This document shows positions 24,898 to 29,273 of a stretch of DNA of 43,062 nucleotides, piece after piece. The notes under the pieces were generated by a model. The model was not told where the DNA came from and did not search any database. It was given only the letters and a program-made list of their open reading frames with translations. Both the position numbers and the translations under genes were made by a program. Numbering within the stretch: position 1 is the stretch's first letter; every line of letters begins with the position of its first letter. Location: the IMG/VR virus record IMGVR_UViG_2663763326_000007. One strand, written 5' to 3'. The stretch is from a virus (taxonomy: Duplodnaviria > Heunggongvirae > Uroviricota > Caudoviricetes).

Positions 24898-25386
24898 ATG
24901 GCTACCAACCCAAGAGAGCACGCCCGGCGAGTGCTGGACACGTTCTGGTGCGGGCGTGGTTTCCCTGTTGATCCAGCGAAAATTGCTCACGACATGGGAT
25001 TAGATGTTTTTATTACCGATCTTCCTGGGAAAGTTTCTGGCGCACTGATTAAACAAAAAGATCAAGATCCAGCGATCTTTCTAAACAGTGATGACAACAA
25101 AGTTCGTCAACGTTTTTCATGTGGGCATGAGTTGGGGCATTACATCGCCCGGCAAGCATCGCATAGCGATGAATATGAGTACGTTGATTTACGTGGCGAA
25201 ACCGCAAGCGCCGGAACGCATCCTGATGAAATTTTTGCAAACAAGTTCGCAGCAGAACTTCTGATGCCGGTAGATGAGGTCAGAAAACTGCACGCTGACG
25301 GTCAACCAAGTTATATAATGGCGCATTATTTTGGCGTATCTGACGATGCGATGACTTATCGTTTAAAGAACTTGAGGTTGGGGTAA
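24898..25386 (+). CDS. ImmA/IrrE-family zinc metallopeptidase (M78-like), stand-alone peptidase domain
   Basis: HEXXH motif in ..FSCGHELGHYI.. and a downstream Glu in ..NKFAAELLMP..; GGAGGAG ribosome-binding sequence. Confidence 0.7.
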   Translation: MATNPREHARRVLDTFWCGRGFPVDPAKIAHDMGLDVFITDLPGKVSGALIKQKDQDPAIFLNSDDNKVRQRFSCGHELGHYIARQASHSDEYEYVDLRGETASAGTHPDEIFANKFAAELLMPVDEVRKLHADGQPSYIMAHYFGVSDDAMTYRLKNLRLG

Positions 25387-25395
25387 CGCTTTAAA

Positions 25396-26001
25396 ATGCC
25401 ATCGGATGACGATTTTAACAGCCGTTTCAAACAGGAAGTAGCACGCAGACTGAAGGATTCCCTCAACCTACACCGTCAGTTAGCAGAAGAGGTTGAGCCG
25501 GAGGACGATGAAACTCCGGTTCAGTCTCCTGACGAAGCTTCACCTCAGCCAAAGGTTTCGCACGCCCCCAAAAAAACGGCTGTCCGTATTCGCGGAATAG
25601 CCAGAAAAAGAGCTGCCGAAGCTCGCAAAATGGCTGTAGCTGCGTCTAGCAAAAGAATTCCAACTGCTACACCCTCTCAACAAGTCACCCGTACTGAGAG
25701 TAAAATCTTGACCGAGTTCACATCTGTGAAACAGGTGAATTCACTTGATACCGAGCATGAGCGCAAACAACTCAACAACAAAGATTTTGAAGCAGAAATC
25801 GCTCTAAAAAAACGATACGGGAAATGGTTCCTGATTATCCTTGCTTTCCAACTTCTGATAATGAATGGTGTATTTATTGCCGACGGCGCAGGTAAGCTGG
25901 AATTTGAGGATTTAACACTACAGTTGTACATGGGCGGTACTTTGACAGAGGTATTCGGCCTCGTGCTGGTCGTGACAAAATACCTTTTTAAACGCAAGTA
26001 A
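25396..26001 (+). CDS. Membrane protein with charged, low-complexity N-terminal region and two C-terminal transmembrane helices
   Basis: Starts 10 bp after the peptidase stop; hydrophobic segments ..WFLIILAFQLLIMNGVFIA.. and ..GGTLTEVFGLVLVVTKYLF.. Confidence 0.55.
   Translation: MPSDDDFNSRFKQEVARRLKDSLNLHRQLAEEVEPEDDETPVQSPDEASPQPKVSHAPKKTAVRIRGIARKRAAEARKMAVAASSKRIPTATPSQQVTRTESKILTEFTSVKQVNSLDTEHERKQLNNKDFEAEIALKKRYGKWFLIILAFQLLIMNGVFIADGAGKLEFEDLTLQLYMGGTLTEVFGLVLVVTKYLFKRK
25930..26001 (+). repeat. 72-bp direct repeat, copy 1 (3' end of the membrane-protein gene)
   Basis: ATGGGCGGTACTTTGACAGAGGTATTCGG..CGCAAGTAA recurs at 29352..29423 with about 6 mismatches. Confidence 0.85.
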
Positions 26002-26463
26002 CTCTCTCGGTCCAACAGTCTTTCGAAGGCCCTGATCAAAGGGCCTTGATAAATTAGCAGTGCGTTGAAAACAGATAGTTATTCCCATCAGTTCCAACGT
26101 AATACACATCAAAAAAATCACCATTCTTTTGCTCTAACGTCAACACCTACCCTTAAAAAAATAATTCTCCAAGAATGAGAAAGTTATTGTGTGTATTAGA
26201 TAAGATATGAGCTGACACATCTATGGCGTGGAGCCAAATTTAATATGACAGTCCGCTCTGTGCCATAAGCGGACTGTCAATAAACAGATTCACTTGTAAA
26301 TCTTGAAGCTATACATATTTACTTTCAATGATAAATAAAAGAACTATCCAAAAATCACTGAGAGCATATTTTAACTAACCCTCCGCTACTATTAACATAA
26401 ATTTCACCCAACCATAATTAAATTGATACATATAGCAACTTACCTTGATACGAATCATCTGGG

Positions 26464-27162
26464 TTATATTTTTCCATATTTTTTTCCGTCAAATCGAATC
26501 ATGCCAGGATCAAGAAAATTAATTAAATCGATTAACGCGTGCTGTATTCTGATTAGCCTTTCTTTATAAATTCCGATATCTCTTGTCATATTTATCACTT
26601 CATTGTTTAAATCTAAAAAAAATGGCTCATTGATAAAGCAATTTTCCTTTGTGAAACTGCCGTAACCTATGCAATCAAATCCAGTATCTGTTGATATCAG
26701 CATCTTTTCTGCAATAGCTCTCTGCTCTCCTATGAAAAACATAAAATACTGACCAAAGACGTCTGTTTGGATTAATGAGTTAATATTGTTCTGTAATCTA
26801 ATAAACTCCCTCATTTTTTTATTTTTTTCTAGGCTAAGGTATTGAATGTCTATGCGGGCAGCTTCTGTCCATGCAAAAAACTGGGAAAAAAGAAAAACAG
26901 TATTGTTGATAACATAATCTTGTTGGCGCTTATTCCCATTATGATAAAACTCTTCAATGAACCCCAATTCTAATATATTATAAATACGGCTTTGTAAGTC
27001 TGAAGCTGAGCGAATTAACGGTTCAATATAGTACTGATGTTTTCTCCTTACATCCAGTGATTCATTGAGCTTGTTTATTCTATTCTGATTATAAGTAGAT
27101 ATAGCAATAGAGATTATAGCTATTGCACCACTAATAAAGCTTGAAATTAATGCCGTACCCAT
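26464..27162 (-). CDS. Low-GC protein with N-terminal transmembrane helix (232 aa), function unknown
   Basis: ATG at 27160..27162 with AAGGA 7 nt upstream; N-terminal ..LISSFISGAIAIISIAISTY..; Asn/Ile/Lys-rich, far more AT-rich than the flanking phage genes. Confidence 0.5.
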   Translation of the reverse strand: MGTALISSFISGAIAIISIAISTYNQNRINKLNESLDVRRKHQYYIEPLIRSASDLQSRIYNILELGFIEEFYHNGNKRQQDYVINNTVFLFSQFFAWTEAARIDIQYLSLEKNKKMREFIRLQNNINSLIQTDVFGQYFMFFIGEQRAIAEKMLISTDTGFDCIGYGSFTKENCFINEPFFLDLNNEVINMTRDIGIYKERLIRIQHALIDLINFLDPGMIRFDGKKYGKI

Positions 27163-28349
27163 CTAAAAGTCCTTTGATTCTTGCTTGGTTAACAAAATGA
27201 CATAATTTTATTTAATGCCATAACAACTTAACAATATATCATAATATGATTATTATGGTGTAGCTTGTCGCATCTACGCTCCATTACAAACAGATGTAAG
27301 ATATAACCTATATGTTTTAGCCAGCAAATTCGAAAGCATTCAAAGTAGTCTCATCGAACTCTCGAAACCCTATGTCTTCGGGTATAAAATATTTAAATCC
27401 ATTTGCATAATATCGACTCATGTTTATTATATTCTCCCCATTCACCATTAAGATTTGACATTATTTTCAACAATCGGTTATTGCAAGATTGAAATATATT
27501 TTTACTTGACACAATATTCCATGTAGCCCAGCGATTCGACTTACCCCCAACTATACGGACAATCTAAATTAAATCGATGATTTTTTGATACATTCTCCTC
27601 TCTCCATTACTTTATGTTTTTGTTCCCCAAAAATACCTTGCTCTCTAAAAAATAATTGTTCTTTAAGTTCAAAATCGAGATCTACATGAGCGTTAGATAC
27701 AAAGCTAATATGTTGAAATGTCTTTCCCCCCCCATAACGGCATTGTTATCTAAACTATGTTACACAAATATAATATTACCCTTTCAACGTAATCCAAGAA
27801 TAAGATTAATGCCATTATATATATCATAAATATGATATTTTGTATATTTTTATCATTTAGCCTTGATTGTACTAGGTGTACTCTCAACGAAGTAGGGAAA
27901 GTCTGTTCCTCGCTCACAGCTGCCCTTCAGTAAGCGAAAAAATGCCTACTCGGTGCCATATACAGCCATTGTTATTAACAGCAGGGAATAATTCAAAACT
28001 GAAATTAAATATCTACCTTTTACAGTAGAAATAGTTCCTCCAGGACACTATCCATTGCCGGGCACAATCACTCGGGGTATAACGATATAAAATATGTTCA
28101 TGATAGTGCAGGTTCGTATATTAAGTTCAGCAGCGAAAACATGCCTTACAGGTTTCCGGTTTTGGGAGCGTCGTTACAGGATCCTGCGCATACCGTTCCC
28201 ATCTGTTGAATTAAAGGTTTCACAGCCTTTGCCGATATCACCTTTTACCTTACCTGTGATGCGTTCAGTGCTCAGCGTTGTTTACTGTAGCTCTCGGGAC
28301 TGATTACAGACCGCGTCTTAAAAACCAATCCTTACTCTAAAGGGAATTC

Positions 28350-29273
28350 ATGAGATTAAAATACTCAGTACTCTTACTCGCCATTGCCCTTACAGGCTGT
28401 GATAACAAAAAAGATGAGATCGGTTGTTCTTCGGAAATAACCCAGTCAGCTCTCATGGATTTATTAAAAAAATCTGCTTATGAAGGACTCTCTGAACAGG
28501 TCGATAAATACCCTGATGTCACTAATCAGACCAAACGAAGCACACTGGACAAGATCAAACTAGCCATCTCTGAGATCTCCACAACATCAAGTGACACGGG
28601 CAGCACAATGAAAACTTGTGAAGGGACCGTGACGATGACTCTATCTGCGAACGAGTACGTCCAGCTTTCAGATGCTTACAGAAAGAATTTTAATCGTAAT
28701 CTCGATAAGCAAATGGAAAGCCTGTTTTTGGAGAACAACGCAAACGCCTTTTCAAAACGTATCACCTACACCGTGCAGGCGACCGACGATCAGAAAAACG
28801 TTTTTGTAAAAACCTCTACTGATAATCCGATATCAGTGGGCGCCGCTTTACTGACATCGCTTTCCATTATCACCCCGATCGTTGAGCAGCAGAAAATCCA
28901 GCAGGCTAAGGATGCCCAACAGAGTCAAATTGAAGCGGAACAACAGGTGCAACTCAGGGCGCAAGAACAGGCTAAGTATGAGGCGGAGAAGCAAATAGAG
29001 AGACAGGCACAACTTCAGCCGCAAAAAGCTGACAACCTTGATCAGTCCCGAATGGCATTTGCGAATGCCGACTCTGATTTGAGTACCGTCTGGAGCAAGT
29101 TAACCCCGGCGAAGAAAAAAGATTTGCTGCCTTCTCAGCGTCAGTGGATCAAAACTAAGGATGCTATGTGCGGTAAAGTTTCAATGCAGGGAACAGATGC
29201 TGAAGTCAAGAAAATGGTCGACTGCCAGACGCAAATGACCCTTTCAAGAATCGCTTTCCTCAGAAACCAATAA
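28350..29273 (+). CDS. Lipoprotein with C-terminal DUF1311 (LprI-like) domain
   Basis: Signal peptide with LTGC lipobox; Gln-rich coiled linker; C-terminus ..LSTVWSKL..QRQWIKTKDAMCG..MVDCQTQMTLSRIAFL.. fits the remembered DUF1311 Cys/Trp pattern. Confidence 0.55.
   Translation: MRLKYSVLLLAIALTGCDNKKDEIGCSSEITQSALMDLLKKSAYEGLSEQVDKYPDVTNQTKRSTLDKIKLAISEISTTSSDTGSTMKTCEGTVTMTLSANEYVQLSDAYRKNFNRNLDKQMESLFLENNANAFSKRITYTVQATDDQKNVFVKTSTDNPISVGAALLTSLSIITPIVEQQKIQQAKDAQQSQIEAEQQVQLRAQEQAKYEAEKQIERQAQLQPQKADNLDQSRMAFANADSDLSTVWSKLTPAKKKDLLPSQRQWIKTKDAMCGKVSMQGTDAEVKKMVDCQTQMTLSRIAFLRNQ

Follow-up and report, generated by a model that had tools for sequence, protein, structure and literature searches.

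The gene at positions 26464-27162 of the window (the whole stretch of 43,062 nucleotides that was analysed) encodes a membrane-anchored protein of 232 amino acids, the soluble domain of which is related, remotely but with significance in profile-profile alignment, to the 1TM protein of E. coli E101. The E101 'RT-nitrilase + 1TM' system has been validated as anti-phage (Rousset 2022, PMC9122126). The window protein belongs to a large, hitherto unnamed superfamily, and the 1TM proteins that partner the RT-nitrilase (UG5-large, a class 3 DRT) are one small enterobacterial branch of it. We tentatively read the gene as a stand-alone, membrane-acting anti-phage gene of the abortive-infection type, and hold this reading with somewhat less than even confidence.

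The window matches, with 100% identity, a lambdoid prophage found in E. coli ST131 (EC958, JJ1886 and other strains). In EC958 the gene (WP_000536231.1, RefSeq label 'hypothetical protein') is bounded by an LprI-family gene and, at the opposite end, by an ImmA/IrrE peptidase gene with its neighbour, a gene for a 201-aa protein. A literature search returned no paper on WP_000536231. The coding sequence, its local signals and the parts of its product are as follows.

26464-27162, minus strand: coding sequence of the 232-aa membrane-anchored protein (open reading frame list, RefSeq, PHROG 5606, dN/dS 0.10-0.25)
27091-27156, minus strand: single N-terminal transmembrane helix, residues 3-24 (Kyte-Doolittle scan, AlphaFold2 helix 3-65, hydrophobic N terminus in all aligned relatives)
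26503-27036, minus strand: conserved helical domain, predicted to be cytoplasmic, residues ~43-220 (47-sequence alignment; AlphaFold2 pLDDT mostly >90; the region aligned to the E101 1TM protein)
27170-27175, minus strand: ribosome-binding site AAAGGA, 7 nt 5' of the ATG (also the annotated ribosome-binding site in the homologous P2-EC58 record AJ512683.1)
27205-27234, minus strand: candidate sigma-70 promoter TTGTTA-18-TAAAAT (9 of 12 matches, by consensus only in a pattern scan)
26246-26279, minus strand: terminator-like stem-loop of 13 bp with 7 G-C pairs (scan and P2-EC58 alignment)

The reading frame starts with ATG and is a real gene. The first-pass annotation had credited it with a strong ribosome-binding sequence and a composition foreign to its surroundings, and both descriptions hold: AAAGGA is found 7 nt before the ATG, and the GC content of the coding sequence is 0.32, against 0.48 for the whole window. 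The depression is regional, with values of 0.31-0.35 over 26000-28000 and 0.45-0.55 on either side. No open reading frame of at least 60 aa is present on either strand in the ~1.2 kb upstream, from the start codon to the next gene, and the downstream neighbour is convergent. The terminator-like stem-loop lies 185 nt 3' of the stop codon and is conserved in P2-EC58. In the pattern scan, sigma-70-like sites in the region were no more numerous than in shuffled sequence. In the ST131 strain 736 (locus L107), a 1-nt deletion in a T7 tract at window position 26479, at the 3' end of the coding sequence, alters the C terminus, and the annotated product is a 'lysogenic protein' of 247 aa.

The protein has exactly one hydrophobic segment. 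In a Kyte-Doolittle scan the 19-residue mean exceeded 1.6 only for segments starting at residues 1-6, and the first helix of the AlphaFold2 model begins at the same place, in agreement with the single N-terminal transmembrane helix proposed at first pass. Residues 24-45, just past the helix, contain five K/R and two D/E. By the positive-inside rule this balance suggests that the large domain faces the cytoplasm. The alignment of 47 sequences revealed 22 invariant residues, mostly polar, which follow a linker of variable length (P48, L49, D55, L56, Q57, S58, R59, N62, Y83, Q94, W98, E100, R103, G145, E146, Q147, R148, A149, Q207, L217, D218 and P219). In the AlphaFold2 model computed from this alignment (pLDDT 86, pTM 0.78), helix 3-65 leads into a bundle of helices, in which residues 155-164 form a short beta-hairpin by the conserved Cys164. 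Structure prediction, proposed as a check in the first-pass annotation, thus gave a helical domain after the N-terminal helix. The same annotation had called the domain rich in Asn, Ile and Lys; Ile (14.2%) and Asn (8.2%) are indeed enriched, but Lys accounts for only 5.2%. A HEPN domain, considered because of weak HepT matches and an R-x5-H motif at residues 202-208, was ruled out, as the His is replaced by Asn in several relatives.

The protein matched the profile of PHROG 5606, a family without known function, over its full length (residues 1-232 of 232, E 7.1e-163). A word-indexed search yielded 290 relatives, the best name among which was 'lysogenic protein'; our literature search found no paper characterising a protein of that name. 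An exhaustive profile search of 1.84 billion representatives yielded 1,954 clusters (50% identity) at E <=0.001, 435 of them at <=1e-30. The relatives are ~230-270 aa long and retain the N-terminal hydrophobic helix. In a pattern scan of one genome per species, 268 of 185,579 species genomes carried the family, among them Enterobacterales, Acidobacteriota, Cyanobacteria, Actinomycetota, Bacteroidota and Nitrospirota. Among phage records it was present in one of 50,697, and among plasmids in two records. Fusions are rare. Two relatives (P0129 and P0130) have a C-terminal trypsin-like serine protease, with weak NAL1_N matches and, in P0130, a GDSGS motif, and one (P0204) has a C-terminal GerE/LuxR helix-turn-helix. 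These fusions suggest that the conserved domain can serve as an input module for different outputs.

No housekeeping or known non-defence family was matched. Pfam and NCBIfam gave no family, only a chance match of the transmembrane helix to CNNM (E 0.057). The profile search of PDB sequences gave nothing below E 0.5, and Foldseek searches of PDB and BFVD gave nothing at E <=0.001. Among the known Sie, Abi and PD/PDC single-gene systems in PADLOC, Pfam and PHROGs, nothing matched apart from RTasTM and a chance match to Cas3 (E 0.012).

RTasTM is the PADLOC name for the reverse transcriptase (RT)-associated transmembrane protein of DRT systems. The window protein matched its model PDLC03799 with an E value of 1.8e-5; all 47 relatives matched the same model (best 9.8e-11), and 36 of the 47 also matched PDLC03013. 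We took the E101 1TM sequence from Table S2A of Rousset 2022. It is the type protein of RTasTM and matches both models end to end, with E values of 2e-163 and 2e-122. The family profile was aligned to this sequence with a probability of 95.9% (E 5e-9), and hhalign comparison of the family profile with a profile of 18 E101-type sequences gave 96.5% probability and E 7e-10 over 145 co-linear columns. The first-pass annotation could not assign the soluble domain and proposed a remote-homology search; the profile-profile comparison now places it with the E101 1TM protein.

The positions in common are Y83, T88, Q94, W98, R103, E146-Q147, I150-G151, C164, Y167 and F170, and they form the motifs Y-x4-T-x5-Q-x3-W-x4-R, EQ-x2-IG and C-x2-Y-x2-F. 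The two proteins also resemble each other in build. The E101 1TM protein (UG5-large, class 3 DRT; PDLC03013/PDLC03799, clusters 85/1858) likewise has ~230 aa, an N-terminal transmembrane helix, a stalk helix, a helical domain and a hairpin at the conserved Cys, and its AlphaFold2 model (pLDDT 87) has the same order of elements, hairpin included. Both are AT-rich cargo of mobile-element hotspots. However, the E101 protein is only ~20% identical to the window protein, and the window family has invariant motifs of its own that are absent from the RT-linked branch, EPL..A..DLQSR..N towards the N terminus and LQHALIDL..FLDP towards the C terminus. True RTasTM members score E 1e-122 or better against these models, and the window protein 1.8e-5, so the relation is homology at the level of the superfamily and not orthology.

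The arrangement of the genes differs as well. Genes of the E101 type overlap the RT gene, starting 4-8 nt inside the 3' end of the gene for a ~960-aa RVT_1 protein, whereas the window family has neither an RT nor any other conserved neighbour. Thus the window gene shares with RTasTM the family profile match and the build of ~230 aa, one N-terminal transmembrane helix and a helical domain, but it is not directly downstream of, and overlapping, an RT-nitrilase gene. On these sequence features it is best filed as an RT-less, stand-alone variant of the DRT-associated 1TM family, and not as a member of a DRT system. The E101-type branch comprises 29 clusters at 90% identity; by cluster counts the stand-alone branch is far larger.

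A transmembrane protein, of clusters 85 and 1858, is frequently found with the RT-nitrilases of UG1 and UG5-large (Mestre 2022, PMC9226505). The E101 system of E. coli requires this protein for defence (PMC9226505), and it has been described as an effector (PMC9122126, PMC9226505). In DRT1 and DRT11 the RT-nitrilase defends without a transmembrane protein (PMC13275509, PMC13436386), and the RT and transmembrane parts are therefore separable. A channel-like role of the transmembrane partner has been raised by the DRT1 authors as speculation only (PMC13275509). Next to ~18% of DRT1 (UG1) genes the transmembrane protein is Drt1b, which resembles the 1TM protein in being a small membrane protein found with a class 3 RT-nitrilase and is optional for RT activity (PMC13275509). 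The Drt1b model of PADLOC was matched by a single one of the 47 relatives (E 0.005), and the two families show no demonstrable homology.

The gene is part of a low-GC cassette carried in a variable position of the prophage.

26024-27948, no strand: variable cargo slot of the lambdoid backbone (comparison with the prophage of E. coli S42)
26205-27925, no strand: low-GC cassette, ~87% identical to the Z region of P2-EC58 (megablast and alignment; GC 0.324)

The sister prophage of E. coli S42 is 97-98% identical to the window up to position 26023, and identity resumes at 27949. Between these points S42 (L105, 8125-10229) has a gene for a GIY-YIG nuclease and two small hypothetical open reading frames. 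As the flanks match and the genes between them differ, 26024-27948 constitutes a variable slot in which cargo is exchanged. The first-pass annotation had placed the gene in a repeat-flanked insert; the S42 comparison supports an insert, but no direct or inverted repeats bracket it in the window. The inverted repeats annotated in P2-EC58 reduce to one perfect match of 12 nt, the right arm of which is not kept in the window.

The counterpart of the cassette is GenBank AJ512683, 'Bacteriophage P2-EC58 proviral Z-region, ORF1, putative lysogenic protein'. Strain GDAR2-2 has a copy of the P2-EC58 type at the Z/fun position of a P2-like prophage, flanked by gene G (tail-fibre assembly) and gene FI (tail sheath); the slot of the window copy, in a lambdoid prophage, is a different one. 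A third copy, 85% identical, lies in an AlpA-containing island. In its location at Z/fun, its AT-richness and its independent transcription unit, the P2-EC58 copy resembles the lysogenic-conversion morons of P2 (fun/Z, tin, old), but no sequence relationship to anything annotated was detected, and the name 'lysogenic protein' given to ORF1 of P2-EC58 is a guess that has spread through annotation. The cassette was found in 413 of 5,426 complete E. coli genomes (about 8%), essentially in ST131, and 409 of the 413 copies are at least 99% identical to that of the window. Comparison with four orthologues in other contexts gave dN/dS values of 0.10-0.25; the gene is thus under purifying selection, which maintains it in each setting. 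It is a functional, horizontally mobile, single-gene cargo. In some ST131 strains (S9, R10, R13, WP4-S17-ESBL-03 and 1162T7) an IS1 is inserted within 25900-28400, and matches to the cassette are split around the IS1 transposase gene; these insertions indicate that the cassette is dispensable.

To look for partner genes, we clustered 1,025 neighbouring open reading frames from 80 genome loci all against all. The query family was the only one present everywhere. The next-largest cluster, a histidine kinase ~4 kb away, occurred at 10 loci, and none of the families among the 148 immediate neighbours occurred at more than four. The gene therefore stands alone, as had been proposed at first pass. 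Defence families were not enriched among the immediate neighbours in 74+ diverse genomes. At many loci, including those of most environmental genomes and notably in Acidobacteriaceae and Heliomicrobium, the gene sits singly amid housekeeping genes. Its neighbours in Heliomicrobium are a methylcrotonyl-CoA carboxylase operon; those in Acidobacteriaceae are ALAD, acyl-CoA dehydrogenase and YchF. Among Enterobacterales and in a few other taxa, it is found in mobile DNA or in surroundings of the defence type. In Providencia the gene is in a P2-like prophage and adjoins the tail-fibre assembly gene, and in Lonsdalea it lies at the end of a P2-like prophage, adjoining an AAA_15 + DUF4435 pair, the domain pair of PARIS (PMC9122126). 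In a Lysobacteraceae metagenome-assembled genome (MAG) it adjoins SIR2 + HerA, in Serratia an ORC/Cdc6-like ATPase, and in several MAGs HsdR, nSTAND-CHASE2, CHAT-NACHT-TPR or helicase-nuclease genes. It also occurs as cargo of an integrative and conjugative element (ICE) and in an islet with an integrase fragment and RelE.

Both kinds of setting bear on function. The 1TM homology, taken together with the accessory and defence slots (Z/fun, the GIY-YIG slot, and the PARIS-like and SIR2-HerA neighbours), favours a role in defence, and within defence abortive infection over exclusion at entry. The first-pass annotation had left these two open, naming either an abortive-infection or a superinfection-exclusion factor; its defence part is strengthened and the exclusion part is weakened.

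Housekeeping neighbours, with lineage-specific synteny, at most of the 80 loci are what would be expected of a membrane-tethered sensor or regulator outside defence. Its domain would report on the state of the membrane or of metabolism by binding a ligand or partner in the cell, and prophages and islands would carry it as a lysogenic-conversion or fitness gene. The relative with a C-terminal GerE/LuxR helix-turn-helix has the form of a membrane-tethered transcription factor, and phage and plasmid records hardly ever contain the family. Several points count against the defence reading: the neighbours are mostly housekeeping genes, phage and plasmid records nearly lack the family, the resemblance to the DRT partner is remote (~20% identity), the GerE fusions suit signalling no less than killing, structural similarity to known pore formers stays at the level of generic helical bundles, and the IS1 insertions show that the cassette is dispensable. 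A sensor of this kind is nevertheless hard to reconcile with the sparse and patchy distribution over species genomes and with the tie of the Enterobacterales copies to prophages, ICEs and islands. Nor does it account for the homology to a component of a defence system, and the fusion of other relatives to a trypsin-like protease points to an effector-type output. We regard the sensor or regulator as the main rival of the defence reading, and as somewhat less likely than it.

The absence of a linked RT raises the question of an orphaned accessory subunit, which would need an unlinked partner, an RT or a nitrilase elsewhere, and would otherwise be inert. The only characterised homologue does work with an RT-nitrilase (PMC9122126), and in the P2-EC58-type prophage of GDAR2-2 the other hotspot is occupied by a retron and by an RT like that of Abi-P2; orf544 of P2-EC58 has been noted previously (PMC9508834). 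However, the annotation of the 42.5-kb EC958 locus that matches the prophage of the window includes no RT, none was found among the ten largest neighbouring open reading frames tested, and none recurs among the 148 immediate neighbours. Purifying selection acts and some 2,000 clusters are maintained although no partner is linked to them, and the arrangement differs from that of true RT-linked members, whose genes overlap the RT gene at its 3' end. An orphaned subunit is therefore improbable.

Classical superinfection exclusion, in which the entry of incoming phage DNA is blocked at the inner membrane as by P22 SieA, T4 Imm or HK97 gp15, would suit a predicted inner-membrane protein encoded by a prophage in its own cassette, and the Z/fun locus of P2 carries a gene for exclusion of T5. 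But nearly all of the conserved mass is predicted to be cytoplasmic, and no Sie family was matched in PHROG, Pfam or PADLOC. Sie proteins, moreover, are narrow and phage-specific, whereas this family reaches from Acidobacteriota and Cyanobacteria to Actinomycetota and Bacteroidota and is for the most part not carried by prophages. This explanation is very improbable.

If the gene does act in abortive infection, its product could work as follows. The N terminus, of three residues, would be outside, followed by one transmembrane helix, a long stalk helix and an all-helical cytoplasmic domain of ~180 residues with a small beta-hairpin. The conserved polar surface of this domain would recognise a cue of infection, and binding of the cue would change the oligomeric state. 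The transmembrane helices might then disturb the inner membrane, by depolarisation or leak, so that phage development stops and the infection is aborted. The role in defence and all of the trigger and membrane steps are inferred. In its proposed logic, a triggered membrane protein that halts the infected cell, the protein would resemble the transmembrane effectors of abortive infection (the 2TM effector of retron Ec48, the transmembrane effectors of CBASS and Pycsar, and HalA of Hailong). The likeness is limited to this logic; those effectors are triggered by a separately encoded sensor or signal synthase, and none of the retron Ec48, CBASS, Pycsar and HalA effectors matched the window protein in sequence or fold. 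Solved structures gave no match, in sequence or fold, that would make the window protein a DNA-gated channel of the Hailong HalA type, and comparison with the alpha-helical pore-forming toxins ClyA, NheA and Cry6A gave no significant fold similarity, nothing rising above the level of generic helical bundles.

Upstream of the gene the cassette contains a long leader.

27163-27925, minus strand: 5' leader of ~760 nt that accompanies the gene in three contexts (alignments, six-frame translations, RNA fold)
27726-27733, minus strand: homopolymer tract, read as C8 along the plus strand and as G8 along the gene strand (length comparison among ST131 genomes)

The leader is 81% identical to that of P2-EC58 and 66% identical to that of the island copy at locus L102, for which the dS of the coding sequences is 0.16 and 0.53, respectively. 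Leader divergence is thus similar to the synonymous divergence of the coding sequence. Six-frame comparison showed no intact open reading frame conserved in all three copies. The leader gave no Rfam match as a structured RNA, its fold z-score was -0.38, and three sequences are too few for covariation. We regard it as probably mostly unconstrained. A hidden upstream gene was ruled out, since every copy contains stops or frameshifts; the best small open reading frame has three relatives among 5.8 billion proteins.

This small frame is the one affected by the G8 tract, which runs directly into an ATG. Of the 409 ST131 copies that are nearly identical to the window, 185 have a tract of the length found there and 224 a tract of a different length; the copies sampled from the latter group all have G9, and one further genome has G10. 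G9 opens a reading frame of 55 aa at ~27569-27735 on the minus strand, which is 66% identical to a frame of 63 aa at the same place upstream of the homologous gene in the island copy (pS 0.48 and pN 0.18 over 50 codons). The 55-aa frame has no obvious Shine-Dalgarno sequence in the window and is dead in P2-EC58. The variation between G8 and G9 could be functional phase variation, or it could be homopolymer instability or assembly error.

A broader proposal, which we put forward as doubtful, is that the family constitutes a common immune module of one gene, combining the sensing of infection with an action on the membrane, that autonomy is its ancestral state and class 3 DRT systems recruited one branch of it as their membrane effector, and that the ST131 cassette may be switched by a phase-variable G8/G9 tract. 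The literature that we searched contains no description of the transmembrane protein acting alone. Should the stand-alone protein protect, a common one-gene system would be added to the defence catalogue, carried by about 8% of complete E. coli genomes and essentially by the pandemic ST131. It would also provide a handle on the membrane partner of the RT-nitrilase (DRT1/UG5) systems that can be studied without the reverse transcriptase, and DRT systems would appear to be assembled from modules able to act alone, as the RT-nitrilase is already known to do. Should it have no role in defence, annotation as RTasTM, of the PADLOC type, would need a caveat, as the majority of superfamily members have no RT linked to them.

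Several features of the surrounding DNA were recorded in the course of the analysis. In GDAR2-2, the other hotspot of the P2-like prophage (L098, 839-4828) carries an Abi-P2-like RT and retron Ec48, the latter with its RT and effector membrane protein; the prophage thus has three membrane or RT cargos of defence type. In the window, the ImmA/IrrE metallopeptidase is encoded at 24898-25386 on the plus strand and matches PADLOC capP with an E value of 2.4e-25. The gene for the 201-aa protein (25396-26001, plus strand) starts 10 nt after it, and its product has hydrophobic C-terminal helices and no family match. The two may form a second regulated membrane-protein module adjoining the cargo slot. 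On the other side of the slot, 28350-29273 on the plus strand encodes a predicted lipoprotein of 307 aa with a lipobox-like motif (LLAIALTGC), a Gln/Glu-rich coiled segment and a C-terminal LprI lysozyme-inhibitor domain; it is likely to be another lysogenic-conversion gene. CRISPR-annotated features of two E. coli genomes match the prophage at ~24961-24993 and 25104-25990, in NZ_CM170158 with 100% identity over 33 nt and in NZ_CP166879 with 97% identity in two pieces, which suggests that they are spacers acquired against this phage family.
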